NCBI GenBank assembly: GCA_035936155.1
Contig: DASYWJ010000034.1
Coordinates: 66,586 to 130,585, forward strand
Origin: Tepidisphaeraceae bacterium
GTDB taxonomy: Bacteria > Planctomycetota > Phycisphaerae > Tepidisphaerales > Tepidisphaeraceae
Length of the DNA stretch: 64,000 nucleotides
Direction of reading: 5' to 3'
How positions within the stretch are numbered: the first letter of the stretch is position 1; the number at the start of each line of letters is the position of its first letter. This document shows, piece after piece, positions 17,670 through 39,494 of this stretch. The notes under the pieces are model-generated. The model ran no database searches, was not told the DNA's origin, and saw only the letters and a list, made by a program, of their open reading frames with translations. Position numbers and translations under genes: made by a program.

Positions 17670-20567
17670 TCACAGGCTGGTCAGTTCCTCGCCCGTGGTG
17701 TTGTCAAGAATGCTGTCCCTGGAGACCTCGTGGAAGAACCAGTCGCGGCCGCCGCCGCCGCGCATGCGATCGGTTGCGCCGTCGTTGCCAACCGTGGCCG
17801 CTGTGAGCACGTTGACGCCATTGAGGCCTCCGCCGTTGCGGAGATTGGCGATGCGGGTCGCGTTGGGATTGGCCGAGCCCCATTCGGCGGAGAGGGAGGC
17901 GAGCGCGTCGTTGTCAGCGTCATGCTGAGTGGTGCCGCCGATGAGGATGTCCTCGCCGTCTCCGCCCTTCAGTTCGTCGCCGCCCAGGCCGCCGATGAGG
18001 ATGTCGTTGCCGGAGCCGCCGGTGAGCGTGTCGAGAGCGGTTCCCCCGAGCAACACATCATTACCGGCGCCGCCGCCGAGCTGGTCCAGGCCGTTCTCAC
18101 CGCGGAGAATGTCATCGGCGCCTCCGCCGCGCAGCGTGTTGTTGCCGTTGCCGCCGTTGAGGATCAGCGGGATCATCACGTCGTCGGTTGCGATGATGCT
18201 GTCGTGGCCGTTCCTGCCGTTGATCGTGATGGAGGTTGTTTCCTCAATGCCGTAGTGGAGCACCAGGCCGTTGAACTCCAGGCCAACCATCTCGACCCCT
18301 TCTTCGTTGACAACCTTGTAGAGCCTCACGACATCGTCGCCATTGGTGAGGTCAACGACGGCGCGGCCCTGGTTGTCAAGGAGGGTCGACTTGAGGTAGA
18401 AGGTGGCGCCTGCCGAGCGCCGGCTGTCGTTGAAGCCGCTCTGCACCTGCTCGTAGGTCACGTTGCCTTCGACATCAATGACGACGTCAATGGGGCCTTC
18501 GGGGTCCTCGCCCCCGGTGGCAGCGCCGTAGCGGGCGGCGAAGGTCGTGCGCTGCTCGAAGGGGTCATTGCTTAAGCCGGCCACGAGAATCTTCTCGTTG
18601 TGCAGCGCTACGCCCAGCGCTGTATCCTGATACTGCCCCGACGCGTCGCCGGGCGCCATGTCGGTCTCCACGTGCGCGCCGCCGTTGAATGATGGATCCA
18701 GCGCCACGCCATTGAAGCGCGCCAGGACAACGTTGTCCGCGCTGGCGCCGGCGACCACCACCGTTCCGCTGCCCGGGTCATACGCCACGGCGTTGTAGCT
18801 CAGCCGGCCGTCGTCGAACTGTGGCAGGTTGTAGGTCTGGGCGTCGATGAGCAGGCCGTCGGCGGAAAACTCGGCGATGGCGCCGCGTGAGCCGAAGAAC
18901 GGGTCAGGCTCCAGCCGGAGGAATACCGGTTGGGAGGACTGGCCGACGGTGACGATTGTGCCGTCGGGTTTGACGGCGACGTCGTTCAGCACGTCGAACG
19001 TCTGCGAACCAAAGTCGAGCACGGCCAAGCCGTTGCCGCCGAAGGCAAAGTCACGGCCGCCGAAGGAGTCGAATCGGGCGATCACGAAATCGTCGCCCAA
19101 GGTGCCGGCCGCGATGATGTTCGCCGGGCCCTCGATCGCCGGCTGCAGCCCAATCGCGGAGCCGCGCGAGCCGCTCGCGAAAACCGTGCTGATGCCCGTC
19201 CCATCGTTGAAGTTCGGATCGAGCGTGCCCGTCGGCGTCAGCCGCATCACGAACATCGCCTGGTTTTCTGAGAAAAGTGCATGCGTGCCCACAATGGCGA
19301 TGATGCCGTCGCCATCGACGAGCACATCGCGCCCCTCGTCATCCTGGGTGTCGCTGAAGATGTCGAACGTGCGGAACCCGAATGCATCGTCCACCGCGCC
19401 GGTGCTATCAAGCCGGGCGACGGCGACATCCAGGTCGTTGCGCTGCGGGGACCTGGACTGCCCCACGATGATGACCCCGTCGCCGCCGTCGATAGCAACG
19501 CCGAACGCCTCATCGTCGCCGGCGGAGCCGATCTCGGCCACGCCGTCACCGGCGAAGGTATTGTCCCACGTGCCGTCGGAATTGTAGCGCGTGGCAACGA
19601 AGTCCTGACTTTCGGTGTCGGGAACGAACTTCGAGCCGACGAGGACCACGCGGCCCTGGGAATCGACGGCGGCCGCGGAGATTGCGGACCAGTCCGTGAC
19701 GGGCCCGGAGGTGAAGCCGCCTTCGTCGCCGTAGGTTGGATCAAGCTGCCCCGGGTCGACGCCAGCCTCCTGGAGCACGGCGTTCAAGGCCGCCGTTTGT
19801 GCCGCGGCGCGGGCGGGCGTGATGTCGATGCCGTCGACCGATGCCAGGTCGAAATCGCCCGCCCCGCCGTCGACGGTATCGACGTCGCTGTGCTTTGCGT
19901 ACAGTGCGTCGTTGCCGCCGCCGCCGAATAGCTTGTCGGAGCCCGTGTTGCCGATCAGTTCATCGCTGCCGTCGTTGCCGGTGATGGAATCATTTCCGCC
20001 CCCGCCGGCCAGGAAGTCCTGCACCGTTCCGCCGCTGCCGATCAGTGTGTCATTGCCGGCGGTGCCGAGCACTTCCTCGGCGTCGCAGTCGTCCCCCTCG
20101 GCGCCGTTGTTGCCGCCATCGGCGACGTTGTCGTTGAGGCTGACGCGGACGGCGGAGGTGCGCGCGGAGTAGCTGATGGTGTCGAGCCCCCCGTCGCCCG
20201 AGAAGTCATCGGCGCCGGCGCCACCCACCATCGTGTCGTTGCCGTTGCCGCCCGAGATGGTGGAGGGGATGCCGCTTCCGATATTGCCGGAGATGAAAAT
20301 GTAATCGTTCCCACCGCCGGCGTTGACGAAGATCTTGTTGAACTGTCCCGCGCTATTGCCGGAGACGAACGTCGTGCTGACTCCGGTGACGCTCACGCGT
20401 CCGTTGGAAAGCCGGTTGACGACGATTTCCTCTGAGCTGGACGAACCGTCGATCCGCAGAACATTTCCCGAGAGGATCGACGCGGTGGTGAGGAACCGGC
20501 GGACTTCGAGCGGCTGGAGTTCGAAGATGCCGGCGATATTGGCGCGCATGCGCTTAGTGGATTTCAT
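17670..20567 (-). CDS. Large RTX-like calcium-binding repeat protein (haemolysin-type GGxGxD repeats plus beta-propeller/delta-60-like repeats)
   Basis: Dozens of GGAGADDF, GGNGND and GGSGNDIL nonapeptide-type repeats at both ends; central DxDGxxD-rich repeats; no N-terminal signal peptide. Confidence 0.75.
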   Translation of the reverse strand: MKSTKRMRANIAGIFELQPLEVRRFLTTASILSGNVLRIDGSSSSEEIVVNRLSNGRVSVTGVSTTFVSGNSAGQFNKIFVNAGGGNDYIFISGNIGSGIPSTISGGNGNDTMVGGAGADDFSGDGGLDTISYSARTSAVRVSLNDNVADGGNNGAEGDDCDAEEVLGTAGNDTLIGSGGTVQDFLAGGGGNDSITGNDGSDELIGNTGSDKLFGGGGNDALYAKHSDVDTVDGGAGDFDLASVDGIDITPARAAAQTAALNAVLQEAGVDPGQLDPTYGDEGGFTSGPVTDWSAISAAAVDSQGRVVLVGSKFVPDTESQDFVATRYNSDGTWDNTFAGDGVAEIGSAGDDEAFGVAIDGGDGVIIVGQSRSPQRNDLDVAVARLDSTGAVDDAFGFRTFDIFSDTQDDEGRDVLVDGDGIIAIVGTHALFSENQAMFVMRLTPTGTLDPNFNDGTGISTVFASGSRGSAIGLQPAIEGPANIIAAGTLGDDFVIARFDSFGGRDFAFGGNGLAVLDFGSQTFDVLNDVAVKPDGTIVTVGQSSQPVFLRLEPDPFFGSRGAIAEFSADGLLIDAQTYNLPQFDDGRLSYNAVAYDPGSGTVVVAGASADNVVLARFNGVALDPSFNGGAHVETDMAPGDASGQYQDTALGVALHNEKILVAGLSNDPFEQRTTFAARYGAATGGEDPEGPIDVVIDVEGNVTYEQVQSGFNDSRRSAGATFYLKSTLLDNQGRAVVDLTNGDDVVRLYKVVNEEGVEMVGLEFNGLVLHYGIEETTSITINGRNGHDSIIATDDVMIPLILNGGNGNNTLRGGGADDILRGENGLDQLGGGAGNDVLLGGTALDTLTGGSGNDILIGGLGGDELKGGDGEDILIGGTTQHDADNDALASLSAEWGSANPNATRIANLRNGGGLNGVNVLTAATVGNDGATDRMRGGGGRDWFFHEVSRDSILDNTTGEELTSL

Positions 20568-20772
20568 GTTGTGCCCTTCCTCCGATGACGAGATGACTGT
20601 GGCGGGGTTGCCCTTCGGGGCAAGACGTTACAAAAACCGATCTGCAGACGCAAGGAATAACAAGAGAATTTGCGCCCAACCAGATGCGAAGCCACGCCTC
20701 ACAATAGCGCAGAATTCCCTACAGTGATATGGCTCACCGTCGAGGCAGTCCGGCGAGGTCGCGGGATCAGCC

Positions 20773-22152
20773 TCAGCGTGTCCTGCGCACCTTCTGATCG
20801 GCCGCGGGCTGGACACCGGCGGACTTTAGCTTGACCGGCTGGGCGGCCTTGACCGTCACGGCCGGCGCCGCCTGCACCTTGGTCGCAGATTTGACAGAAG
20901 CGGGGACCGCTTGTGACGTGGAGTCGGCGAAAATCCGGGCGGTGCCGAGCAGCATTCCTTCGCCGCCGCCGTTGGGCGTGATCGCTTCCGACGTGAAGCT
21001 CACCGTCTCCACTACGCGCTGCCCGCCTTGAAAGACGTCTACGGTCGCGGGCGTCGTCGCGCCTGAGATGTGCTGGGAACCAAAGAAGTAGCCCCCCTCG
21101 GGAAAGGTACCAGGCCAATATACGATTTCGATGCCGCCGTTGGGGCCTCCGCGATGGTCGAAACCAGTGCGCCCGCCATTGGGGATCACATTCAGCCCCC
21201 CTATCGGGTACACCGTGTTGCGGTCGGCGTCCTGCGCGTTGGGTGCGTGCGGGCTGAGGACCGCGAGGTTCAGGTCGGCGTTGTTGTCCCAGCGGAGCAC
21301 GAAGTTGAGTGAACCGGGGAGCACTGGAATGAGTTCGGCGTCGGTCGTGGGGTGCGTGCCGCCGCGGATGACCTTGATGCCCTTCTCGTAATCGTAGCCG
21401 ATCGTCGCGCCGCGCGAGAGGAGATTGGCGATCAATCCTGCTTCCGCGTCGGTCCGCGCCAAGGCCGCGCCGGGGTCGACGAACGCCTCGGCCAGTGATG
21501 CCTCAGCGGCGCTGTCGGCGTTTTCGTTGACCTTCAGCTTGCCCGCGCCCGGTCCGCCGAAGCGGATGCGCTTGCGCGCGTCACGGAATTCCGCCCGGCC
21601 CGTCAGGCTCACGGCCTGCGCGACGAACGGCCGCTGGTCGTACAGGCTCACCTTCGTTCCGCGAACGGCCAGTGTGCTGCTGGGGCTCGAGATCGTCGAC
21701 TCGTGCTCGCGCCCCGCCGCCTCGATGTCGTAGCGCGTCCGGCCGTAGCGCATGCCCAGGTTGGTCTTGAATTTCCCGTTGTCATTGACCGCCTGGAGCA
21801 CCTTGACCGTGCCGAGGCGGTCCAGCGTGATGGTCTGATCCGGTGGGATGGTGAATTGCACGGCGCTGCGCGGGCCGGTGCGGAATTCGGCGTTCTGGTC
21901 GAGCACCATCCCGACAGCGGCCTTCTGCCACGGCTGGCCCTCAGCCGTGCGGACCTGCACAACGCCCTCGACGCCCGTCACGGTCGCCTGGAGCGCTTCG
22001 GCGCTCTCTGCCGGTTGCGTGGCCGGCTGTGAGGGTGTCGCCGCCGGCTGCGTGGGCTGCAATGCCTGGGCAACAGAACCAGCGGCTGCGATAACAGCTA
22101 AGAATATGCCAATGCGGCGTAGCATCTGTCTGCCTCCGACGGTCTTTTTCAC
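20773..22152 (-). CDS. Secreted FecR-domain-like protein
   Basis: Signal peptide (MLRRIGIFLAVIAAAGSVAQA). FecR-like segment VEGVVQVRTAEGQPWQKAAVGMVLDQNAEFRTGPRSAVQFTIPPDQTITL. Lies 10 nt downstream of the lipoprotein gene. Confidence 0.55.
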   Translation of the reverse strand: MKKTVGGRQMLRRIGIFLAVIAAAGSVAQALQPTQPAATPSQPATQPAESAEALQATVTGVEGVVQVRTAEGQPWQKAAVGMVLDQNAEFRTGPRSAVQFTIPPDQTITLDRLGTVKVLQAVNDNGKFKTNLGMRYGRTRYDIEAAGREHESTISSPSSTLAVRGTKVSLYDQRPFVAQAVSLTGRAEFRDARKRIRFGGPGAGKLKVNENADSAAEASLAEAFVDPGAALARTDAEAGLIANLLSRGATIGYDYEKGIKVIRGGTHPTTDAELIPVLPGSLNFVLRWDNNADLNLAVLSPHAPNAQDADRNTVYPIGGLNVIPNGGRTGFDHRGGPNGGIEIVYWPGTFPEGGYFFGSQHISGATTPATVDVFQGGQRVVETVSFTSEAITPNGGGEGMLLGTARIFADSTSQAVPASVKSATKVQAAPAVTVKAAQPVKLKSAGVQPAADQKVRRTR

Positions 22153-22161
22153 GCAGGTCCG

Positions 22162-22761
22162 TCACTGCGGGGAGGGGCCGGTGAGTGCGTCCACCTGGCC
22201 CGGCAGAACCGCCGCCGGGACGTTGGCCGGGTTGCCGCGCTGATAATCTTCGATGCGGCCGATGATCCCGACGAATTCGAACCCGCTGAACGTCTGGTTG
22301 GGGCTACTGGGGGGATACACCCCTGCAAACATCAATTCCCGCACCGCGTACCGCGGCGAGACGCCGAAGATGCGGCTCGTCACGCCTCCGCTCAACCCCG
22401 TCAGCCGCATGATTGCGACCGCCAGCGTGCCTCGACTGACGGCGACATCCCCCGGATCATCGAAGCCCCTGGGCAGCATGTTGCGCGCGCGCAGCTTCTC
22501 GACGCGCGCCTGGTATCCGGCGGCGTCGTCCTCTCCGTCCATGTAGAGCAGCAGCCCATGGAATGAATCGTCGTTGCTCGTGAGGGATTTCTCGGTGAGC
22601 CGGTGCCAGAATTCCATCTGCGCATCGACCTCGCTGCCGCCGAACTGCGCTGTGAGCGAGTCGGGGACGGGGGTGGGGGAGGACTGACAACCTGCTCCGA
22701 GCAACAGGACGATGAGCGCTGCAATCAAGAGTGACGCGGGGAGTCCAGCGTCAAAACGCAT
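22162..22761 (-). CDS. Lipoprotein, hypothetical
   Basis: LLIAALIVLLLGAGCQSS is a signal peptide plus lipobox. The start overlaps the upstream OMP stop by 11 nt. Confidence 0.6.
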   Translation of the reverse strand: MRFDAGLPASLLIAALIVLLLGAGCQSSPTPVPDSLTAQFGGSEVDAQMEFWHRLTEKSLTSNDDSFHGLLLYMDGEDDAAGYQARVEKLRARNMLPRGFDDPGDVAVSRGTLAVAIMRLTGLSGGVTSRIFGVSPRYAVRELMFAGVYPPSSPNQTFSGFEFVGIIGRIEDYQRGNPANVPAAVLPGQVDALTGPSPQ

Positions 22762-24244
22762 AGGTCACCCCCGTATGAATGAAGTGACGGGGCTCATCAG
22801 ATTCAAACACGTCGTCATTCGGGAAGAAAAGCCCGTAGCGAATAGAGAGCGTGACGTCGCTGGTGATCTGCCAGTTGAGAAACACGTCCGGCTCCCAGCC
22901 CAGATAGCGCTCGCCCTCGGAGCCGGGGATCAGCGGCTCGTCGATGACCGCATCCGAATCCGTGCGGTAGAAGACGAACCAGTCGGCGCCGATCTGGATG
23001 CGCGATAAGACCCCGCCGCCGTCGGCGAAGGGAAAGGTGCTGGCCCCGACCCGGAAGCTGGTGAGGTTCGATACCTGCGGCGCGAAAGCGAGCCCGGTGT
23101 TGAGCAGTCCGAAGCCGTTGAACGCGTTGTCATCCGTGCCGGGGGTGTTGCCGCCGAATGTGTCAGATGTGCTGAGCACGCGATCGTCGTCGCCAGACGC
23201 GACGATGACCTCGCCCGTGAAGCGCGACCGGCGGACGTCGGCAAGCAGGTAATCGACGCGAAGGTTCGCGGCCCAGGCGTCGATGTCCTCCTTCGTCTGC
23301 GGAATCGGCTCGATGAAGAGGCTGTCGCCGGAAAAGCTGTTCGACAGGCCGCTGCCGCCCTCATGCACAAGCTCCACGCCATAGAGCCAGCGGTCCCCGA
23401 AGGACCCGGCCGAGCCGACGCCGAGGTAATGGCTGTCGTATTCGAATTCGGTCGAAACCGGCCCCTGCACGAGCGGGTCATCATCGTTGTAGTCGCGCTG
23501 CACGAGCCCGTAGACGTACGGCCGGTGCCGCCCGATCGCCTTGGAAAGCATCGCTCCGTAAAACCCGCGCCGCGTGTTGTGATCAAAGTTTGGCCGCGAG
23601 GCGTCGAAGTCGACCGTCCGCGTGGGCGTGACGCCCGCGATCAGCGACAGACCGATGTCCGTGCGCCACGACAGGTCTACCATCACGCCGTCGATGTCCT
23701 GGCTGAGCACGAGCCCGTTCGCCCAGTAGACGAGGTCGCGGCCGCCCTTGAAGACGACGTTGTAGTCGAGCTGCTCGCCCGCATATGCGGCGCGCGAGCG
23801 GGCGAGGTCGAAGCGGTAGTATCCGGCGTCGAGGTCCGGATCGATGCGCTCGTCGCCGCGGCCGTCGAAGCTGTCGCCGTCGTTGAAGTCGCGCCACCCG
23901 ACGCGCCCGCGCAGGAAGAACTCGTGCGCGCCGTCGATGTTCAACCGGAAATACGGGAACAGCTCGTACTGCCGCAGGACGTGGTTTTCATCGACGTTGT
24001 CGTCGAGCGAGAGGTATCCGAATGTCACGTAAGCCCCGTAGTCGATATACGTCCGCTGCCCCAGCGGCACGTCGGGGTTGATCTCGAGGATGGTGTCGCG
24101 GCGGATCTGCTCGAGTTGGCGCTGAAAGCGCTCCAGGTCCTGCTGCTGCGCATGGGAAATCGACGAGGCAGCGGCGCAGGCACAGAGGGCGAGCACGGCG
24201 AGGGCCAGTCGCCGGCGGCAGCAGCAGCGGTGCGTGGTAGCCAT
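22751..24244 (-). CDS. Outer-membrane beta-barrel protein (hypothetical)
   Basis: The ATG at 24244 gives MATTHRCCCRRRLALAVLALCACAAASSISHAQQ, a signal peptide. The protein is rich in alternating aromatic/Gly beta-strand patterns and ends in ...GVTYAF, the OMP C-terminal aromatic signature. Confidence 0.6.
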   Translation of the reverse strand: MATTHRCCCRRRLALAVLALCACAAASSISHAQQQDLERFQRQLEQIRRDTILEINPDVPLGQRTYIDYGAYVTFGYLSLDDNVDENHVLRQYELFPYFRLNIDGAHEFFLRGRVGWRDFNDGDSFDGRGDERIDPDLDAGYYRFDLARSRAAYAGEQLDYNVVFKGGRDLVYWANGLVLSQDIDGVMVDLSWRTDIGLSLIAGVTPTRTVDFDASRPNFDHNTRRGFYGAMLSKAIGRHRPYVYGLVQRDYNDDDPLVQGPVSTEFEYDSHYLGVGSAGSFGDRWLYGVELVHEGGSGLSNSFSGDSLFIEPIPQTKEDIDAWAANLRVDYLLADVRRSRFTGEVIVASGDDDRVLSTSDTFGGNTPGTDDNAFNGFGLLNTGLAFAPQVSNLTSFRVGASTFPFADGGGVLSRIQIGADWFVFYRTDSDAVIDEPLIPGSEGERYLGWEPDVFLNWQITSDVTLSIRYGLFFPNDDVFESDEPRHFIHTGVTYAF

Positions 24245-24338
24245 TCTTTGGCCGGGCATGCTGCGCGAGCGGACCGGGCTGTGCAAGTTTTTTCGCCAGA
24301 AGGAACAGCAGCACCTGCAAGGGCGCAACGGGAACGGG

Positions 24339-28080: not shown

Positions 28081-30333
28081 ATGGCAGCGAATTTCGCCTG
28101 GGGCATCGACGTCGGCAACCGCGCGTTAAAAGCCATTAAGCTCGTCCGCGACGGCGACGGCGTCCGCATTGAGGACTTCGAGGTCATCGAGCACGAGACC
28201 GTCCTCTCCCAGGCCGGCGACAACCGTGAAGCGATGATCCAGGCCGCCCTGTCCAACCTGGTGGCCCGCCACGCGTTCAAGGGCGGGGTGTGCGGCGTCG
28301 GCGTGAGCGGGCAGTCGAGCTTCGCGCGATTCATCAAGCTCCCGCCGGTCGAGCCAAAGAAGATCCCCGAGATCGTCCGGTTTGAGGCCATCCAGCAGAT
28401 CCCCTTCCCACTCGATGACGTCGAGTGGAGCTACCAGCTGTTCCAGAGCGAGACGAGCCCCGACGTCGAGGTCGGCATCTTCGCGATGCGCAAAGAGCTC
28501 GTGAACCAGCACATCAGCTACTTCATCGACCAGGAGCTGAATGTTCAGGTCGTGCAGATGAACCCCCTGGCCGTCTACAACGCGATGGCGTACGACGGGA
28601 AGATCAAGGGGACGACGATGATCGTCGATCTAGGGGCCGAGAACACCGACCTGATCATTGCCGACGAGGACACGATCTGGATGCGCTCGATCCCGATCGG
28701 CGGGAATAACTTCACCGAAGCGCTGGTCAAGAGCTTCAAGCTGAATTTCCAGAAGGCAGAGGAGCTGAAGCGCAACGCGGCCAGCAGCAAGTACGCGCGG
28801 CAGATCTTTCAGGCGATGCGGCCGATCTTTGCGGACCTGGTGGCAGAGGTACAGCGGTCCATCGGGTTCTACGCATCGGTGCACCGCGACTCGCGGATCA
28901 AGAAGATCATCGCGCTGGGCGGGACGTTCAAGCTCCCGGGGCTGCAGAAGTACCTCCAGCAGAACCTGCAGCTTGACGTCGAGCGCCTGGACCGGCTGGC
29001 AGCGGCCCCGCCGACCGACGGGAAGCTTGCGGCGGCGTTCAACGAAAACGCGCTGGCGATGGTGGGCGCCTACGGGCTGGCGCTGCAGGCGATGGGCGAG
29101 GGCAAGATCAGCAGCTCCCTGCTCCCAGCGCGCATCCGCCGCGAGAAGGCCTGGCAGGAGAAGACCAAGTGGTTCGCCGCCGCCGCGGCGCTGTTCGTCC
29201 TGGGGACGGCCATCCCGTACGGGAGCTGGTTCATCCACAAGATGCAGTACGACAACGAAAGCGCCGCCCGCGCGACCATTGCCAGCGTTCAGGCCACCGC
29301 CGCTGCGCTCGATACGGAGTGGCAGCAGATTCAGGACTCAGGCACTAATGACCGTCAGCGGATCATGAACATCCGCTCCCTGAGCGAGTATCGGGACCTC
29401 TGGCCGCAGCTGCTGGCCGACATCAACTCCGTGATTCCCAAAGGGGACCCCGCCACCCTGAAGCAGGTCCCGCGGAAAGAGCGGGAAGTGGTAAACGTGG
29501 AGAACATCATCACCCGGTATGAGCCGAACATCGGGGTGGCCGTTGCCGACCCGGACTTCAAGCGCTTCGCCGGTGTCGCCGGCTCCGGCGCCATGACGGG
29601 TAGCTTTGCCGCCCCCACCCCCGCGGCCGGGATGGGCATGGACCCGGGGATGATGGAAGACCCGGCGATGATGATGGAAGACCCGGCGATGATGGGGATG
29701 GGGATGGACATGGGGATGTCTCCCCAGCCCGTCGCGCCCGTCCCCGGCGCCGCCCCCGTCGCCGGCGGTGCAAGCACCGGGCACGGGTTCATCATCACGC
29801 TCACGGGCACGACGCCGCACGGGGATCCGGCCTCGCTGCTCACCGACACCGTCATCAAAGATCTGGGTGAGCTGTCGCTGGCCAAGCTGCCGAAGGGCAA
29901 GAAGTATTACATCGCCAAGGCGGAGATTGTCACGACAGCACCGCTGCGGGCCAACCAGGCGCGGATCACCGAGCTGCAGCGGGTGTTTCAGGCCGCCGAG
30001 GAGGCCAGAGGACTCGCTGCTCAACAGCAGCAGCAGCAGCAGCCATACCAGCGGGGACTGTACGATCCGGCGATGCAGCCGGAAATTGACATGGACCCCG
30101 CGATGAACGGGATCGGGGGCGTGGGACAGCCCGCGCTGGGCCCCAATGGCCAGCCTCTGGAAGACCCGCGGCCATTCCGGGATCGGCAGTTCCCCAGCGA
30201 GGACGTGCGGGACGACTCGGAGTTCTCGATCGTCTTCGCGGTCGTGCTCGACCCGAATGAGGCGCCGCCGGCGGATCCCAATGCCGCGCCGCTCGACCCG
30301 GCCGCAGACCCAACGGCTGCCGCAGTGCCGTAA
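28081..30333 (+). CDS. pilM: PilM-like actin-fold ATPase fused to a transmembrane segment and long periplasmic region (PilM-PilN / GspL-like fusion)
   Basis: N-terminal 350 aa align with PilM (GIDVGNRALKAIKL, VRFEAIQQIPFPLDDVEWSYQL, IVDLGAENTDLII). One TM helix (WFAAAAALFVLGTAIPYGSWFI) is followed by a 365-aa tail with a Met-rich DPAMM repeat and polyQ. A strong GAGGAG Shine-Dalgarno is present. Confidence 0.8.
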   Translation: MAANFAWGIDVGNRALKAIKLVRDGDGVRIEDFEVIEHETVLSQAGDNREAMIQAALSNLVARHAFKGGVCGVGVSGQSSFARFIKLPPVEPKKIPEIVRFEAIQQIPFPLDDVEWSYQLFQSETSPDVEVGIFAMRKELVNQHISYFIDQELNVQVVQMNPLAVYNAMAYDGKIKGTTMIVDLGAENTDLIIADEDTIWMRSIPIGGNNFTEALVKSFKLNFQKAEELKRNAASSKYARQIFQAMRPIFADLVAEVQRSIGFYASVHRDSRIKKIIALGGTFKLPGLQKYLQQNLQLDVERLDRLAAAPPTDGKLAAAFNENALAMVGAYGLALQAMGEGKISSSLLPARIRREKAWQEKTKWFAAAAALFVLGTAIPYGSWFIHKMQYDNESAARATIASVQATAAALDTEWQQIQDSGTNDRQRIMNIRSLSEYRDLWPQLLADINSVIPKGDPATLKQVPRKEREVVNVENIITRYEPNIGVAVADPDFKRFAGVAGSGAMTGSFAAPTPAAGMGMDPGMMEDPAMMMEDPAMMGMGMDMGMSPQPVAPVPGAAPVAGGASTGHGFIITLTGTTPHGDPASLLTDTVIKDLGELSLAKLPKGKKYYIAKAEIVTTAPLRANQARITELQRVFQAAEEARGLAAQQQQQQQPYQRGLYDPAMQPEIDMDPAMNGIGGVGQPALGPNGQPLEDPRPFRDRQFPSEDVRDDSEFSIVFAVVLDPNEAPPADPNAAPLDPAADPTAAAVP

Positions 30334-30416
30334 CGACCGTCGCGGCCACCGCGCAGGTCGGTGGGAGAGTGCAGCCCCACGCATCGCGTCCGTGGCTGTC
30401 AGCGAATAGAGGTATC

Positions 30417-31763
30417 ATGGACCTGATCAAGAAGAACATCGTCAGCGTGATTTGCGGCATCGTGGCGATCATCGCCATCGTCGCCTCATTCTTCCCGCTG
30501 GGCAGTTATGTCGAGGATCTGCAGGCGTCGCTTGACAAAAGCAAGGCCGCTTACACCGCCGTCGACACCCTGCGCACCAAGGAGCGCAACCTCCCCATCC
30601 TGAAGCTGGAAGAGACCACTCCCCAGCCGCTGGGCATGTTCCCCAGCAAGGACGTGATCGAGAAGGCTGCCAAGGTCGTGAAGGAAGTTGAGATGCAGAG
30701 TGTGCGGATGCGCAACGCCGCCGTCGCGATGAACAAGCGCGACGTCCTAGTCAAGGGGGTGCTGCCCAACCCCGCCCCGCCTTACGACATCCGCTTCCGC
30801 GAGCGCTACGTCCCGCTCGTCAAGCCCCCCATGGTTGGGACGCAGGTGACGGGCGAGCCGCCCCGGCTGCTGAAAGAGTTCGGGGGCGGCGTGCTCCCGC
30901 AGCCGGCGATGATCGACGCCGAAAAGCTCCGCCGCAGCAACGAGATCATGAACACCAAGGTCATGAAAGACCAGCGCGGGCAGGTGATCAACCAGCCGGA
31001 GATCACCCAGCTGCTCGCGGAGGCCGCGACCCAAGTGCCGCAGCAGATGCGCCAAGCGGTTGCGGAAAAGAGCCTGTTTTACGTCGAGGTGACGGCGCAG
31101 AACGGGGGCCCGACGCTCGACATGGCGCCGCTCATCGACACCGGCGGCCGACCCCCGCCAGCGGCCATCTGGTGGGCGCAGGTCATGCTCTGGATCCAGA
31201 CCGACGTGCTGGCGGCGATCAAGGAAGTGAATACGACCAAGCTGGAAAGTGGTCAGCCGCCCAAGAACCTGATCGAGGCGCCGGTGAAGCGGTTGGCGCG
31301 GATTCAGATCCCGCACGAGAACATGTTCGTGACGGCCGCGGGTCAGGCGCCGCCGGCGGGCGACCCCGCCGCCGCCGCCGACGCCGCTCTGCCCAAGGTC
31401 GTGCAGGCATCCCCGACCGGACGCGTCTCCAACGGAATGTACGACGTCGTGCACTTCCAGATTCACGCCGACATCGAAGTGGAGAAGATCCCCCTGGTGA
31501 TCCGCACGATCGCGCACAACCGGCTGATGAGCGTGTACCACGTCGAGGCCAAGGCCGTCGACGCGACGGCGGCGCAGCTGAACGGGTACTACTACGGAGA
31601 CAAGCCGGTGGCGCAGGTGACGATGTACTGCGAGGCATTGCTGCTGCGGCACTGGACCGTGCCGCTGATGCCCCAGCCGATCAAGCTGCAGCTGCAGATT
31701 CCCGATCCGGCGGCGCCCGGCGCGGCGCCGGCGGAACCGGCGCCCACGGCGCTGGCCCAGTGA
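30417..31763 (+). CDS. Bitopic membrane protein (PilO/GspM-like position), hypothetical
   Basis: The ATG at 30417 with a GAGGT Shine-Dalgarno gives MDLIKKNIVSVICGIVAIIAIVASFF, an N-terminal TM helix, then a 430-aa periplasmic region. Gene order suggests a pilus/T2SS assembly-platform component. Confidence 0.55.
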   Translation: MDLIKKNIVSVICGIVAIIAIVASFFPLGSYVEDLQASLDKSKAAYTAVDTLRTKERNLPILKLEETTPQPLGMFPSKDVIEKAAKVVKEVEMQSVRMRNAAVAMNKRDVLVKGVLPNPAPPYDIRFRERYVPLVKPPMVGTQVTGEPPRLLKEFGGGVLPQPAMIDAEKLRRSNEIMNTKVMKDQRGQVINQPEITQLLAEAATQVPQQMRQAVAEKSLFYVEVTAQNGGPTLDMAPLIDTGGRPPPAAIWWAQVMLWIQTDVLAAIKEVNTTKLESGQPPKNLIEAPVKRLARIQIPHENMFVTAAGQAPPAGDPAAAADAALPKVVQASPTGRVSNGMYDVVHFQIHADIEVEKIPLVIRTIAHNRLMSVYHVEAKAVDATAAQLNGYYYGDKPVAQVTMYCEALLLRHWTVPLMPQPIKLQLQIPDPAAPGAAPAEPAPTALAQ

Positions 31764-31880
31764 CCGGCCGCCGCCGGTAATGCGGAGCGGAAAACGGTCG
31801 CGCTGTTGAGCGGCCGCAACCAAAGCGGAGAGAGCGACGACCGCAAGACGAGCAGGACCTTCAACCAACGGGTTCGCACC

Positions 31881-33836
31881 ATGCAGAAAGTACTGGATCT
31901 CCTCGAGAAACACGTGCAGTGGGTGGCGCTCGGACTGGGCGCCGTGTGGCTGCTGCTCATGACGTGGTCCTATGTCATCACCCCGCCGGCCGAGGTGGAG
32001 ATCGGCAACAGGACGCTGACGGCGGGCAATGTCGATGAGTACACCGTCGAGAACGCCGTGCGCCCGCTGGAAGAGGCGATGAAGCCCAAAGAAGCGCCGC
32101 CGATGGTCGTCGACAACTTCGCCGAACGCTGGCTGGCGCGTATGAGCTGGGAAAACGTCGAGCCGATCCGGACGGCGGGACTGATCAGCAGCCATGGAGC
32201 GATTCCCGATAAGCTGCTCGAGCGTTCGCCGACGCCCGGCATGAGGATCGCGGAGGGGGGCGGGCAACCGCAAGGCGCCCAGGGGGCGCAACCCGTCGAG
32301 AAGGTAGCGACCCTCCCAACGCCGGCCCCCACGCCTGTGGCTTCCGACTGGCGCTTCGGGCGCTCGACGATCCTCAAGCCCCCGCCAATCGTGCCCGTTG
32401 GCCAGCCGCAGCCGCCGACCCCGCCTGTCCCCGAGGAAGTGGACAAGGACTGGATCACGCAATCGTTCAAGGTGAGCCTGCCCGCGATCGCTGAGCTGTT
32501 CAAGAAGCACCAGGTGCCACCCGCGCCGATCGGCATGACGGCGTTCCTCAAGGTCGAGATGGTCCGGCAGGAACTGCTCCCCGATGGCCAATGGGGCCAG
32601 GAGACAACGCTCCAGCCGCTCCCGCCGTTCGATCCCAACGCCATCCGCCCCCCGTGGCCCGCCAACGGAAACATCCACCAGGAAAACGCCTATCTCAACT
32701 GGGCGGTGCAGAATACCGGAGACATCATCCAGCCGGCTTTCTATCAGACGGTGGAGGGCAAGGGTGACATCTGGGAGCGCCCGGGCGAGCCCGCGCCACT
32801 CCCCGGTGGCGGCGCGTTTAACCCGGCGCAGTTCGCCGAAGGGCCGATTCCCCCGAACATTACGCCGGAGCAGCGGAAACAGATCATGGACTACCGGCGC
32901 CAGCAGGCGCTGCTGCGTCGTCAACAGCAGCAGCAGAACCGTCAGCCGCGCACGCCACGCGGGGGCCGCGGCGCGCCGGAAGACCCCGGCATGATGATGG
33001 AGGGGGACTTCGCGCCTATCGATTCGGATCGTCCCAAGTTCCTCCAGGTCCGCCCATACCCCCCGCGCCGTGGCTATCCGCCGGACATGTACGACCCGGC
33101 CATGATGGAAGATCCGGCCATGATGATGGAAGACGAGTTCATGATGGAGGGGATGCAGCCGCAGCAGCAGCAGATCATGGGCGTTGGCGTGCCGGATGTG
33201 GACTACCCCGCGGGGCTGTTCGACCCGGCGACGTGGCACCTCCCCGCGCCCACAGCGCCCGGCGCGCCGCCGCCCGTGAATCCTCGCCCGTCCGAGGTTT
33301 CGATCTGGGCACACGACGACACGGTCCAGCCGGGCAAGACGTATCGCTATAAGGCGCGATACATGATCAAAAACCCGCTGTACCAGCAGCCCGCCGTGGC
33401 GAAGGACGCCGCCGACGCCAAGGTCTTCGCGATTGAGAGCGAGTTCAGCCAGTGGGGCCCGGCCATCGAGGTTCCGCCGCTCACGAACTTCTTCATCGCC
33501 AATGTTCACCAGGGGCGAATCCGCTTCGATGTGTATCGCTGGGACAAGGGCCAGCAGCACCACACGACGGTGACGGTCGGGCCGGGTGACGTGATCGCCG
33601 CCGACGCCGGCGGCGTGGATTTCCGGACGGGTCACACCGTTGTCGACGTCCGCACGGATCTGAAGAGCCGTGATCCGGTGGTCTTCCTGGCCAACGCCGG
33701 GGGCCGGGCTGTGGTCCGCACGGCACGGGGCGACCGGGAGCACCCGGTCAACAAGAAGCTCAAGGAAGTGGTCGACGCCGCCAAAGCCGCGGCAGCTCAA
33801 CAAGCCGCCGCGGCCGGGGGGCTCCCCGTCCGTTAG
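31881..33836 (+). CDS. Bitopic membrane protein with Met-rich/polyQ disordered module and C-terminal beta-rich (PilP-like?) domain
   Basis: The tracked ORF starts with TTG at 31806. The ATG at 31881 gives MQKVLDLLEKHVQWVALGLGAVWLLLMTWSYVI (TM helix). The protein contains YDPAMMEDPAMMMEDEFMMEGMQPQQQQIMG. Confidence 0.55.
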   Translation: MQKVLDLLEKHVQWVALGLGAVWLLLMTWSYVITPPAEVEIGNRTLTAGNVDEYTVENAVRPLEEAMKPKEAPPMVVDNFAERWLARMSWENVEPIRTAGLISSHGAIPDKLLERSPTPGMRIAEGGGQPQGAQGAQPVEKVATLPTPAPTPVASDWRFGRSTILKPPPIVPVGQPQPPTPPVPEEVDKDWITQSFKVSLPAIAELFKKHQVPPAPIGMTAFLKVEMVRQELLPDGQWGQETTLQPLPPFDPNAIRPPWPANGNIHQENAYLNWAVQNTGDIIQPAFYQTVEGKGDIWERPGEPAPLPGGGAFNPAQFAEGPIPPNITPEQRKQIMDYRRQQALLRRQQQQQNRQPRTPRGGRGAPEDPGMMMEGDFAPIDSDRPKFLQVRPYPPRRGYPPDMYDPAMMEDPAMMMEDEFMMEGMQPQQQQIMGVGVPDVDYPAGLFDPATWHLPAPTAPGAPPPVNPRPSEVSIWAHDDTVQPGKTYRYKARYMIKNPLYQQPAVAKDAADAKVFAIESEFSQWGPAIEVPPLTNFFIANVHQGRIRFDVYRWDKGQQHHTTVTVGPGDVIAADAGGVDFRTGHTVVDVRTDLKSRDPVVFLANAGGRAVVRTARGDREHPVNKKLKEVVDAAKAAAAQQAAAAGGLPVR

Positions 33837-33911
33837 AAAGCGACCCGCTGCGCGGGAAGATTCAAACAGCAAGTTCCAAATCCCAAAGAAGCGGCAAGCG
33901 GAAAACGGGAA

Positions 33912-33950
33912 AAGCTCCAAACACCCGAGTTTGGAGCTTTCTCTTTTTAT
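33912..33950 (+). terminator. Rho-independent terminator downstream of the 28.1-33.8 kb operon
   Basis: AAGCTCCAAAC-acccga-GTTTGGAGCTT hairpin followed by TCTCTTTTTAT. Confidence 0.75.
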
Positions 33951-34020
33951 CTGGAGCATATTTGGAACTTGGATCCTGGTTCTTGGAACTTCCTGTGCAA
34001 AGGGCTAGCATTCGCCGGCC

Positions 34021-36603: not shown

Positions 36604-36717
36604 TTTCACGCGATATAGACGCGGATTCCCTTTATACTCGTCGCCGCCGGGGCCTTCCGTACAATTCACCGCGTACGATGGCCTTCACCTCACGCATGCA
36701 GCGTGGACGAGGTAGTG

Positions 36718-37563
36718 ATGACCGCCGCTTGGCTGCTCAGCTGGTGGAACCTGATCTTCATCGTGCCCTTCGGGCTCGCGATGGTGTATCTGGGTCTGTA
36801 CACCATGACCGGCCTGGGCGGCGACAACGACGCCGATGCCGATGCCGATGCGGATGCGGAGGCGCATGGCGATCTCGGCCATGATACCGATGCCGATGGG
36901 GATCATGGCGTGCACTCCGCGGAGATGCACCACGGTCATGCCGCAGCGCATGGCCATGAGCACGAGCAGGGACATGCCTCTGCCGCACAGCGCGAGCCGT
37001 CGATGCACGAGACGCTGCTGAACCTGGTGGGCGTCGGCCGGGCGCCGCTCGGAATTGTCCTGATGATTCTCCTGATGAGCTGGGGGTTCATCGGGTTCAG
37101 CATCAACCAGATCGTTCGTCCGATCGTGCCGGCGGACTGGATGGTGGCGCTGGCGTCGCTGCCACTGGCGGCATTTGGCAGCGTGGCCGTCACGGGGGGC
37201 ATCGCGCGGCTCGTCGCCCGGCTGCTCCCGACCACCACGACAACCGCTCATCGCCGCCGCGAGCTGTGCGGCTGCGTTGGTGAAGCGATGTACGAGATCA
37301 CCAGCAACTTCGGGATGGTCGCCGTCCGCGATCGCGACGGCAATCACTACCAGCTGCCCTGCCGCGTTTCCGCCGACCGCGGGCCCATCGCCAAGGGGGA
37401 GCCGGTGTTGCTCGTCCGCTACGACCCGGCGACGAAGATGTATGATGTCATCGCCGACGAACTCGGGCGCGCGGCGCGGGCCCTGAACCAGCCCGCGCCG
37501 GACGCGGCGGCGGTGGAGCGAACCATGGATTCAGCTCAGGAAAGGGACCGGGTGTCACAATGA
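36718..37563 (+). CDS. NfeD-like membrane protein (C-terminal OB-fold) with an Asp/His-rich insertion
   Basis: N-terminal TM helix, then DNDADADADADAEAHGDLGHDTDADGDHGVHSAEMHHGHAAAHGHEHEQGH, more TM helices and an OB-fold-like C-terminus (GMVAVRDRDGNHYQLPCR...GEPVLLVRYD). The stop overlaps the flotillin start as ATGA. An alternative GTG start is at 36703. Confidence 0.7.
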   Translation: MTAAWLLSWWNLIFIVPFGLAMVYLGLYTMTGLGGDNDADADADADAEAHGDLGHDTDADGDHGVHSAEMHHGHAAAHGHEHEQGHASAAQREPSMHETLLNLVGVGRAPLGIVLMILLMSWGFIGFSINQIVRPIVPADWMVALASLPLAAFGSVAVTGGIARLVARLLPTTTTTAHRRRELCGCVGEAMYEITSNFGMVAVRDRDGNHYQLPCRVSADRGPIAKGEPVLLVRYDPATKMYDVIADELGRAARALNQPAPDAAAVERTMDSAQERDRVSQ

Positions 37564-39494
37564 TCTTCGTGCTGTTCCTCATCGGTCTTGCGTTGGCCGT
37601 CGGACCGTACTTCCTTCCGCTCCTCGGGGTGGAGTTGGGGTTCGTGTCGCAGGTGCTGATCTCCGGCGCGGGGCTCGTCGTGCTCGCGCTGGTGGCGCTG
37701 ATCGCCGCCGTCAACCGGCTGTGGCGCAAGGCGTCGGCCAACATGGCGTTCGTACTCACCGGCGGAAAACAGGCGCGGGTGATCGTGGACGGCGGCGCGT
37801 TCGTCATCCCCGTAGTGCACCACGTGACGCCGGTTTCGCTGGAGACGATGCGCCTCAACGTCGAGCGCCGCGGCACCCACGCGCTGATCACCAAGGACAA
37901 CCTGCGCGTCGACCTCTCGGCCGAGTTCTACATCAAGGTGCAGGCCAACCAGGAGGACATCCTCCAGGCCGCTCGCTCGCTGGGCGGGCGCAGCGTCGAG
38001 CCGGGCGCAGTCAGCGAGCTGGTTCAGGAGAAGCTGGTGAGCGCCCTGCGCACCGTCGCGGCGACAAAGGACCTCGTCGAGCTGCACGCCAAGCGCGATG
38101 AGTTCGCCAGCGCCGTGCAGCAGATCGTCACCCACGACCTGGCCAGCAACGGCTTGACGCTGGAATCGGTCACGATCTCCGCCCTCGACCAGACCGATCC
38201 CACGCAGCTCCAGGAGCGCAACGTCTTCGACGCCCAGGGGCTGCGGAAAATCGCCGAGATCACCATGAAGGCGAAGGTGGAGCGCAACGAGATCGAGCAG
38301 GAGAGCTCGCGGATGGTCGTGCAGAAGAACGTCTCCACCCGCAAGCACGTGCTGGACCTGGAGCGCGAGCAGGCGGAGTTCGAGGCCGAGCAGCGCTCGA
38401 AAGTGGCCAATGTGCGAGCTCAGCGCGAGCGCGAGATCGCGGAGTTCAAGCTGGCGCAGGACGAGGCCATCAGCCGGCGCGACATCGAGAAGATGAAGCA
38501 GATCGAGACCGCCGAGGTCGAGCGGACGCTGGCGGTGGAGCAGGCGCAGGTGTCGAAGCAGGTGGCGCTGATCGCGACCATGAAGGAGCAGGAAACGGCG
38601 GAGATCCTCAAGAAGCAGGCGGTGGAAGTGGCCGAGCGGGCGAAGGAAGTGGCCATCGCGCAGAAGGAGCGCGAGCGCGCGGCAGCCCAGGCGCAGGCCC
38701 TGTCGGCCGAGGCGGAGCGCGAAAAGGCCAAGCAGCAGGTTACGACGGTCACGGTCACGAGCGAGGCCGATCGCGAGGCCGCGAAGAAGCTGATCGCTGC
38801 CCAGCAGCAGGTCAAGGAAAAGCAGATTCGCGACCAGACGGAGGCCGACGTGCTCGCGTACATGGCGGTGAAGCAGGCAGAAGCCGAACGCCAGGCTGCC
38901 GAGATGCAGTACGAAGCCCGGCTGCGCCTGGCCGAGGCCGACGCGGCGTCGCAATCGAAGAAGGCCGAGGGCGAACGCGCGATCAAGATGGTCGACGTGA
39001 ACGTCGAGCGCGAGCGCGTCAACGTCGAGCAGGCCCGCGTGGAAGTCGAGCGCGTCAGCCTGAGCAACAAGAGCGAGTTCGAGGAGGCCGCGCTGAAGTT
39101 CGAGCTGGACAAGCTCCGCATCGAGGCCGACAAGCAGGTACGCATCGCCGCCGCACAGGCGCTGGGCAACATGCTCTCCAAGGCCAACATGCAGATTTTC
39201 GGCGATCCAACGACGATGAGCCGCATGAGCGAGCAGTTCATGCGCGCCGCCAGCCTGGGCACCGCCGCGGATGGTTTGATGCGTTCGCTCCCGCCGGACG
39301 CGCAAAACATGCTCGAGCGCGTCGCATCGAGCGTGGGGGTGGCGCTGAAGCCCTCCGACGTGCCGCACGATGGCGCCAACGGCAACGGCGCCTCCGATCC
39401 ACCCGCAGCCTCGCCCGAGCGCAGCGACGACATCGAGCCGACGCCTGAAAGCAAGTCGGTGAAGCGCGTCTCGCGCGAGGACCGCTCAAACTGA
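37560..39494 (+). CDS. Flotillin / SPFH (band-7) family protein with long EA-rich coiled-coil
   Basis: N-terminal TM region, an SPFH domain (ITKDNLRVDLSAEFYIKV...) and about 300 aa of E/A/K/Q coiled-coil typical of flotillins (FloT/YqiK-like). Confidence 0.85.
   Translation: MIFVLFLIGLALAVGPYFLPLLGVELGFVSQVLISGAGLVVLALVALIAAVNRLWRKASANMAFVLTGGKQARVIVDGGAFVIPVVHHVTPVSLETMRLNVERRGTHALITKDNLRVDLSAEFYIKVQANQEDILQAARSLGGRSVEPGAVSELVQEKLVSALRTVAATKDLVELHAKRDEFASAVQQIVTHDLASNGLTLESVTISALDQTDPTQLQERNVFDAQGLRKIAEITMKAKVERNEIEQESSRMVVQKNVSTRKHVLDLEREQAEFEAEQRSKVANVRAQREREIAEFKLAQDEAISRRDIEKMKQIETAEVERTLAVEQAQVSKQVALIATMKEQETAEILKKQAVEVAERAKEVAIAQKERERAAAQAQALSAEAEREKAKQQVTTVTVTSEADREAAKKLIAAQQQVKEKQIRDQTEADVLAYMAVKQAEAERQAAEMQYEARLRLAEADAASQSKKAEGERAIKMVDVNVERERVNVEQARVEVERVSLSNKSEFEEAALKFELDKLRIEADKQVRIAAAQALGNMLSKANMQIFGDPTTMSRMSEQFMRAASLGTAADGLMRSLPPDAQNMLERVASSVGVALKPSDVPHDGANGNGASDPPAASPERSDDIEPTPESKSVKRVSREDRSN

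Follow-up and report, generated by a model that had tools for sequence, protein, structure and literature searches.

Lineage-specific tracts with matching motifs in the subunits of a PilM-containing membrane cassette of Phycisphaerae

Introduction

Why do two different proteins of one membrane scaffold carry nearly the same methionine-rich repeats? The question is raised by a 64-kb stretch of DNA from a Tepidisphaeraceae bacterium, a soil planctomycete (contig DASYWJ010000034.1; this whole stretch is termed the window; GC content 64.6%), which holds a cassette of three genes: gene 1 codes for a PilM protein fused to a predicted periplasmic part, gene 2 for a bitopic membrane protein and gene 3 for a large bitopic periplasmic protein. 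The products of genes 1 and 3 are 100% identical to those of an NCBI metagenome-assembled genome of the Tepidisphaeraceae (Phycisphaerae, Planctomycetota). An initial annotation had described DPAMM(M)ED repeats and glutamine runs common to genes 1 and 3, attributed them to a recent module transfer or gene conversion between two adjacent genes, and pointed to the Cu(I) and Ag(I) ligands of CusF, CopA, PcoC and Ctr1 as a precedent. The genes are not in fact adjacent, as gene 2 sits between them, and the main pattern was missed: across the whole family, the motifs of such tracts co-vary among the proteins of the cassette. Here we describe this co-variation, show that it is confined to the peptide level, and weigh the explanations that may be offered for it.

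Results

Methionine-rich tracts in genes 1 and 3

Both of the methionine modules originally quoted are present, as tract A of gene 1 and tract 2 of gene 3 (Table 1), and so are the glutamine runs of both genes and a YDPAM motif in each (30061-30075 and 33090-33104). The tracts are therefore real, but there are two per protein and not one as had been noted: gene 1 additionally has tract B and gene 3 has tract 1. The longest peptide common to the two proteins is an exact match of 11 residues, MMEDPAMMMED, whereas shuffling in blocks of 15 or 30 residues yields common peptides with a mean length of 4.6 and a maximum of 7 residues; hence, the likeness exceeds what local composition would give. Tracts with at least six methionines per 30 residues are found only in genes 1 and 3 of the window, as are in-gene DP[AG]M motifs, with one more match to the latter in a frame antisense to gene 1. 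For this 64-kb stretch, the view that the module is specific and shared rather than a ubiquitous filler thus holds.

The disorder prediction that had been suggested as a check places all four tracts in segments of the AlphaFold2 (AF2) models with a predicted local distance difference test score (pLDDT) below 50, and the tracts are predicted to lie on the periplasmic side of the transmembrane (TM) helices. The linker of gene 3 is the most variable region in the alignment of gene 3 homologues, and its segments with pLDDT below 50 span residues 360-381, 383-385, 388-411 and 413-430. Tract A contains a perfect tandem duplication of 21 nt, which shows recent replication slippage within gene 1 and not to transfer from one gene to the other. 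Length polymorphism between strains is likely for this repeat, as well as for the (CAG)6 run of gene 1 and the (GCA)6 run of gene 3.

Tract motifs differ between lineages and agree within genomes

A scan of species-representative genomes recovered 78 Phycisphaerae loci; 57 of these have all three genes in sufficient length, and every one of the 57 keeps the order gene 1-gene 2-gene 3. Although the disordered segments are hypervariable across the genomes, the same motif appears in genes 1 and 3 of one and the same genome. At least eight distinct motifs are shared in this way: MEDPAMM in the window; PGMPGM in L013, L014 and L009; GPMGP in L024; GFGGPPGG in L070; GYGGPP in L042 and L057; GGGKGG in L069 and L074; PTGVIGG in L017; and PPPFPG / GPGFP in Fontivita pretiosa (L007). 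The motif WDDPAM likewise occurs in both P0129 and P0024, which apparently belong to one contig. In at least four genomes (L009, L042, L069 and L070) gene 2 also bears the motif of its genome. Among close relatives of the window the motif changes in parallel, such that MMEDEFMM is found in genes 1 and 3 of L130, MEGE[YF]M in both genes of L131 and MEEGMM in both genes of L132.

Genes 1 and 3 share on average 2.4 distinct 5-mers within genomes as against 0.76 between genomes (permutation P<1e-4). Per 1000 positions, gene 1 shares 6.6 5-mers with gene 3 of the same genome, 1.5 between genomes and 0.54 with the other open reading frames (ORFs) of its locus, so that sharing within a genome is about 4-fold above that between genomes. 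When only low-complexity (low-entropy) positions are considered, the values rise to 40 for gene 3 and 41 for gene 2, compared with 1.4 for the other ORFs: an excess of about 30-fold over the low-complexity segments of neighbouring ORFs. Block shuffles that keep the local composition yield 9.3 +/- 3.6 shared 6-mers, compared with 75 observed. The methionine and aromatic contents of the tracts likewise co-vary between genes 1 and 3 (Spearman 0.53 and 0.56). The statistics of the co-variation are solid; its cause we infer.

These counts bear directly on the idea of a shared external constraint, under which the periplasmic linkers of an organism would drift to one composition or motif through mutational bias or envelope chemistry, irrespective of the cassette. 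The glycine, proline and alanine contents of the tracts also co-vary between genes 1 and 3 (Spearman 0.5-0.57), as GC content would predict, and the control is limited to short flanks of the cassette. However, the low-complexity segments of neighbouring ORFs share only 1.4 5-mers per 1000 positions with gene 1 where genes 3 and 2 share 40-41, and most of the sharing is lost in shuffles that preserve composition. Moreover, no other methionine-rich tract is found in the 64 kb of this genome, and exact runs such as GGPPGGFGGPP or the 16-residue PGMPGMPGMPGMPGMP of L013 are hard to reach by drift alone. We therefore consider an external constraint quite unlikely as the source of the matching motifs.

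Codons of the shared motifs match no better than expected

A second possibility is that the DNA itself was copied. In this case, neutral concerted evolution would have spread short repeat units among the genes of the cassette, which lie within 4 kb, through slippage and the occasional event of gene conversion or unequal recombination, and no function would be involved. The nucleotide identity of about 90% that was originally reported is accurate: blastn aligns 29641-29682 with 33093-33134 at 38 of 42 bases (90.5%). In the quoted gene 1 string one codon is wrong: the third is GGG (Gly) and not GCG, making the first unit DPGMM rather than DPAMM. To obtain a null for this identity both peptides were back-translated at random from the codon usage of the window, which gave a mean of 36.7 identical bases out of 42, with 30% of the trials reaching 38 or more (P=0.30). 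Methionine has a single codon and accounts for five of the 14 codons in the match; with this and the null expectation of 36.7, an identity of 38/42 is uninformative. An identity no higher than that expected under codon bias was the outcome which the initial annotation itself had named as evidence against transfer. Further, the flanks of the 42-nt match, over 30-60 nt on each side, are only 20-43% identical. Given these values, and the presence of the motif in the orthologues of both genes, a recent module transfer or gene conversion is not borne out.

The same result was obtained when the longest exact peptide matches between genes 1 and 3, picked on amino acids only, were pooled from 35 genomes: of 381 degenerate positions, 165 have identical codons, where the usage of each locus predicts 157.5 (z=0.81). 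Even in the 16-residue identical run of L013 the codons match at chance level. Some details do fit with copying. The perfect 21-nt duplication indicates that slippage is active, and gene 1 of L130 has an EDEF unit otherwise seen in gene 3, with GAT CCG GCC codons that match those of gene 3. The alanine codon of the EDPAMM unit, however, tracks the gene and not the genome, being GCC in gene 3 of three genomes and GCG in gene 1 of two of the three.

The glutamate codons of the EDPAMM units were a further candidate for a mark of conversion: they are GAA in 9 of 9 cases, counting both genes of three related genomes (window 29656-29700 and 33108-33134; L130; L131), while GAG makes up 78% of the glutamate codons in the window. 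We dropped this candidate, since unrelated high-GC metagenomic genes encoding MEDPAMM also prefer GAA in the context ATG-GAR-GAY-CC (20 GAA versus 8 GAG), and the preference is therefore a context effect and not a trace of copying. A possible cause is that GGAGGA, which resembles a Shine-Dalgarno sequence, is avoided where an in-frame ATG follows within a few bases.

Taken together, the tracts are no product of recent gene conversion. As their codons are no more alike than expected, the likeness has been kept up, or has arisen again and again, at the protein level. Conversions that were rare and ancient would still need purifying selection on the peptide, and such selection is needed in any event by the persistence of the motif across orthologues at 62-84% identity. 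Hence, we regard neutral concerted evolution as an improbable explanation. A more general caution follows from the single codon of methionine: a high nucleotide identity between methionine-rich modules is in itself no proof of DNA exchange.

Age and distribution of the motif

At 62-84% identity, orthologues of gene 1 and of gene 3 alike have MEDPAMM-type tracts in the equivalent places, and such tracts also turn up sporadically at about 35%; thus, the sharing of the motif is old and predates these species. In close orthologues, the loop of gene 1 measures 58-68 aa between anchor residues and has 5-14 methionines, and tract 2 of gene 3 measures 31-39 aa with 5-10 methionines. The distant gene 3 homologues P0076, P0079, P0080 (annotated as Sedimentisphaerales), P0081 and P0087 lack the mid-protein tract and end in a C-terminal tail ...EYEDYGDEYYMEDMMMEGMGG, from which it appears that the MMMEGM motif has another position in this part of the gene 3 family.

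Outside the cassette, the DNA pattern for MEDPAMM is found at 51 loci in the JGI metagenomes, only one of which (L102) is a gene 3 homologue. The others are mostly single occurrences in unrelated proteins, along with a few unrelated methionine-rich tracts, so that the heptapeptide is neither a filler nor unique. The JGI collection holds few close relatives of the cassette. The unrelated methionine-rich proteins include the small proteins of L103 and L107, which contain MEDPAMMGMQAQQQPQQQQ; a ubiquilin/STI1-like eukaryotic tract in L108; a protein with KMExPxMMD repeats in L126; and a further tract in L128. A phmmer search with the 30-aa tract A against 1.84 billion representatives returned a single match, P0211, a protein of 164 aa with 11 tandem MEDPAAF units. 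It is probably unrelated to the cassette, and nothing similar to tract A is common.

Methionine, metals and oxidants

Clusters of methionine outside the cytoplasm are well known as metal ligands, and the tracts could accordingly have been a sponge or sensor for Cu(I) or Ag(I) on a pilus scaffold. Several observations agree with this: the tracts are periplasmic and disordered in the predictions and offer many MxM and MxxM spacings, such as GMGMDMGM; in particular, GMGMDPGMMEDPAMMMEDPAMMGMGMDMGM follows the TM helix in a disordered loop of the model and has the clustered MxM/MxxM pattern of extracytoplasmic binders. The known binders, namely SilE/PcoE, the N-terminal region of PcoB, the methionine-rich insert of CueO and the Mets motifs of Ctr1, are likewise periplasmic, intrinsically disordered segments with clustered methionines (for SilE, PMC5008109; for the N-terminal region of PcoB, PMC12509749). 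SilE and PcoB, however, pair histidine with methionine (MxxHxxxxxHxxM, PMC5008109; HAGHHMHH, PMC12509749), whereas none of the 17 tracts of the clade, from gene 1 and gene 3 of close orthologues, has a histidine or cysteine. Binders of the SilE/PcoE/PcoB type also belong to metal-resistance operons, while no cop, cus, pco, sil or other metal-homeostasis genes occur among the neighbours of the cassette. The methionine positions are not conserved and their number varies from 5 to 14 among close relatives; other lineages have no methionine at the same sites (GFGGPP, GGGKGG, GYGGPP); and metal binding leaves the match between genes 1 and 3 unexplained. Judged from the sequences, a dedicated Cu/Ag site is unlikely, and as an account of the tracts we give metal binding the least credence of the possibilities considered here.

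A different tract of the window, the Asp/Ala/His-rich GGDNDADADADADAEAHGDLGHDTDADGDHGVHSAEMHHGHAAAHGHEHEQGH of a YqiJ_N-like membrane protein (36703-37563, +), appears from its sequence to be a better candidate for metal binding than the methionine tracts. Its gene shares 4 nt with the 644-aa SPFH/Band-7 (flotillin-like) gene that follows (37560-39494, +), at the start of the latter.

The methionines might alternatively serve as a redox switch or oxidant sink: the tracts would become looser, and the machine would be modulated, when periplasmic methionine is oxidised to the sulfoxide. The predicted location would expose them to oxidants, and the tracts, being disordered, rich in methionine and set beside glutamine runs, resemble methionine-rich prion-like domains. 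For the domain of this type in yeast ataxin-2, self-association is reversed by H2O2 and restored by methionine sulfoxide reductase (Msr) enzymes (summarised in PMC9312190). This would apply only to some of the lineages, as others use Phe, Tyr or no hydrophobic residue, and the cassette has neither msrP/msrQ nor other redox genes linked to it. Therefore, a redox role is very doubtful.

Architecture of the cassette proteins

Gene 1 matches PilM_2 (PF11104) over aa 8-336 (E 3.6e-39; 135.1 bits, cut-off 27) and TIGR01175 at 147.8 bits, above the cut-off of 133. Foldseek with its model recovers PilM of P. aeruginosa (5eou_B, E 5e-25, target TM-score 0.79) and of T. thermophilus (2ych_A, E 5.8e-22). 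By sequence profile and predicted fold alike, it is a bona fide PilM. The AF2 model continues with a TM/helix segment (about aa 350-375), a coiled coil that spans aa 384-451 and an alpha/beta domain (472-723), which is broken by the two disordered inserts that bear the tracts. The best NCBIfam match of gene 1 is to the Amuc_1101 family (NF045709; E 1.4e-73, aa 48-452) of the Amuc_1098-1102 pili-like cluster in Akkermansia, a member of the same PVC (Planctomycetes-Verrucomicrobia-Chlamydiae) superphylum as this bacterium. Gene 1 nevertheless falls well short of the equivalog, with 248.7 bits against a cut-off of 650 and an alignment to model positions 49-461 of 608. The model leaves uncovered the C-terminal 300 aa, where the tracts lie, and the Amuc families have no match to genes 2 or 3.

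Gene 2 has no match in Pfam, NCBIfam or the PDB sequences, and its alignment profile gave only noise against the latter. Its listed GTG start is probably too far upstream: homologues start at the ATG 16 codons downstream (MDLIKKN...), and this M17 is nearly invariant in the alignment. Gene 3 similarly belongs to no sequence family in Pfam or NCBIfam, and its profile also gave only noise against PDB sequences. In its AF2 model (pLDDT 76.6), the N-terminal TM helix is followed by a domain at aa 140-355, after which a disordered linker leads to a C-terminal part that is beta-rich. A small beta-sandwich in this last part may resemble the secretin-binding homology region (HR) domain of GspC and PilP, a likeness that Foldseek failed to reproduce; the assignment is thus a possible one. 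Ahead of the TM helix, the cytoplasmic N-terminus of gene 3 (aa 1-15, 31881-31925) has the nearly invariant peptide MQKVxxFLEKHVQW, in which M1, E9 and W14 are invariant in 32 sequences. By analogy with the N-terminus of canonical PilN, this peptide could dock on the PilM domain.

The cassette proteins are a variant of the known PilM-PilN-PilO-PilP scaffold, the alignment subcomplex of type IVa pili, and of its type II secretion system counterpart GspL-GspM-GspC. They have in common with these a cytoplasmic actin-like PilM domain, bitopic membrane partners with periplasmic alpha/beta domains and, possibly in gene 3, the small beta-sandwich noted above. In PilP a disordered segment precedes the beta-sandwich domain, and a predicted one lies ahead of the possible module in gene 3. 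The GspC HR domain and PilP have been described as structural homologues (PMC3169554). There are also several differences: PilM is fused to its membrane partner in the cassette; genes 2 and 3 lack sequence similarity to PilO, PilP or GspC; gene 3 has a TM anchor and additional domains and is much larger than PilP; and the disordered segments bear lineage-specific repeats that match between subunits, of which we found no description in the literature for the canonical systems. Finally, no secretin, ATPase or pilin genes were detected near the cassette among the window neighbours scanned. The flanking genes are not conserved between loci, which makes the cassette an autonomous unit; a link of gene 3 to a secretin was not seen.

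Other features of the window

The neighbours of the cassette include a cytochrome c/DUF7133 protein, a response regulator, SdhB-like and ArgG proteins, and others. Upstream, on the reverse strand (17670-24328), are envelope genes coding for a 965-aa RTX/beta-propeller protein, a FecR-like protein and an alginate-export-like outer-membrane barrel, which as far as could be seen are not related to the cassette. Opposite genes 2 and 3 lies an antisense ORF of 1070 aa (30747-33959, -), with 0.2% methionine and rich in Arg, Gly and Leu. It is a high-GC artefact, although naive longest-ORF calling picks it over the two real genes.

Table 1. Coordinates of the cassette genes and of their repeats and disordered segments in the window (TRF, Tandem Repeats Finder)
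Feature	Position (residues)	Strand	Description
Gene 1	28081..30333	+	750 aa; PilM fused to TM helix and predicted periplasmic PilN/PilO-like part
Gene 1 disordered loop	29578..29775 (aa 500-565)	+	AF2 pLDDT 29-37; strands on either side pLDDT >87
Gene 1 Met tract A	29629..29721 (aa 517-547)	+	GMGMDPGMMEDPAMMMEDPAMMGMGMDMGMS; 13 Met in 30 aa
Gene 1 21-nt perfect tandem duplication	29649..29694	+	TRF: period 21, 2.2 copies, 100% matches; makes MMEDPAM x2
Gene 1 second disordered insert	30016..30132 (aa 646-684)	+	AF2 pLDDT <50; contains the polyglutamine run and tract B
Gene 1 QQQQQQQ, (CAG)6	30022-30042	+	TRF (CAG)6.3; pure (CAG)6 run 30025-30043
Gene 1 tract B	30058-30111	+	LYDPAMQPEIDMDPAMNG
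Gene 2	30369..31763	+	bitopic membrane protein, no detectable family; probable real start ATG at 30417
Gene 3	31881..33836	+	651 aa; bitopic periplasmic; start at the ATG matching homologues; layout: N-terminal TM helix, alpha/beta domain, disordered linker, C-terminal beta-rich region with possible GspC-HR/PilP-like module
Gene 3 RRQQQQQNRQ	32916..32945	+	end of conserved Arg/Gln-rich helix (AF2 helix aa 329-353)
Gene 3 disordered interdomain linker	32946..33176 (aa 356-432)	+	AF2; holds both gene 3 Met tracts
Gene 3 Met tract 1	32979..33011	+	EDPGMMMEGDF; DP[GA]MMxEG kept in close orthologues
Gene 3 Met tract 2	33090..33182 (aa 404-434)	+	YDPAMMEDPAMMMEDEFMMEGMQPQQQQIMG
(GCA)6 pure run	33155-33173		TRF

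Discussion

What, then, keeps the tracts of different subunits alike? The explanation that we favour, to which we give about an even chance, is that fast-evolving, disordered, low-complexity segments in the periplasmic parts of a conserved three-protein inner-membrane scaffold of the Phycisphaerae take, locally and in this clade, the form of DPAMM(M)ED tracts. This scaffold would be composed of gene 1, with its PilM and PilN/O-like parts, gene 2 of no detected family and the PilP/GspC-like gene 3. The segments, which occupy the gene 1 loop and the gene 3 interdomain linker, lengthen by replication slippage, and their motif differs from lineage to lineage while agreeing among the subunits of one genome, at the peptide level only. 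The likeliest cause of this agreement, held with the same middling confidence and suggested by the sequences, is selection acting through contact, either among the tracts once the ring is assembled or between them and a single shared partner. The tracts would thereby form, or contribute to, a fuzzy sticker-and-spacer interface between subunits or with that partner: Met would be the hydrophobic sticker of this clade, with Phe or Tyr taking its place in other clades, and Gly, Pro, Asp, Glu and Gln would provide the spacers, here Asp/Glu/Pro/Gly. A precedent may be seen in canonical type IVa pili, in which the disordered N-terminus of PilP docks on PilN/PilO. The co-variation of motifs between subunits lends indirect support to an association between the tracts.

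Some points weigh against this explanation. The pattern would look no different if conversions had been rare and old and purifying selection had then acted. In this window, gene 2 has no methionine tract. The correlations across genomes, such as those of tract methionine and aromatic content, are uncorrected for phylogeny. Finally, the control for a genome-wide style of tracts consists of about 16 kb of flanks per genome with crude ORF calls, rather than of whole proteomes.

The proposed interface has its closest analogues of motif type, as opposed to alignable sequence, in methionine-rich prion-like domains (yeast ataxin-2/Pbp1; human census, PMC9312190) and in the cohesive FG and GY sticker-spacer domains. 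These too are disordered, have hydrophobic stickers spaced by Gly, Pro or Gln, and lie adjacent to polyglutamine; the four tracts, with pLDDT below 50, similarly combine predicted disorder, stickers that are Met or aromatic, and spacers of Gln/Gly/Pro. Those domains are, however, eukaryotic and cytoplasmic or nuclear, whereas the tracts of the cassette are much shorter (about 30 aa), strongly acidic and embedded in the periplasmic domains of a membrane machine. Carrying the analogy further, one might imagine a PVC-type machine, for pili or for secretion, in whose periplasmic cage the matched tracts from two or three of the subunits that make up the ring merge into a cohesive phase akin to that of FG nucleoporins or of a condensate. 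Each lineage would have its own choice of sticker (Met, Phe or Tyr), and the tracts would have to stay mutually compatible, from which their co-variation would follow; in lineages that use Met, oxidation of methionine in the periplasm could act as a switch of the phase. Alternatively, the tracts could work as methionine bristles like those of SRP54, protecting the hydrophobic N-terminal helix of pilins while these are extracted from the membrane. This extension is speculative, and we think it rather improbable.

Literature searches for methionine-rich tracts in PilM or in Planctomycetes, and for Amuc_1101, brought up nothing on such tracts; nor did we find an account of repeats that are specific to a lineage and alike in peptide, though not in codons, across the subunits of a single envelope machine. 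The disordered linkers of machines that span the envelope tend to be regarded as passive spacers. Repeats that vary by lineage, and yet are identical between subunits without shared codons, constitute a comparative signature of a co-evolving, low-complexity periplasmic interface. If the favoured explanation is true, this signature would provide a sequence-only route to fuzzy interfaces in uncultured bacteria, would show how sticker-spacer tracts can replace contacts of the PilP/PilN type, and would make the cassette a tractable bacterial system for the compatibility rules of low-complexity domains.

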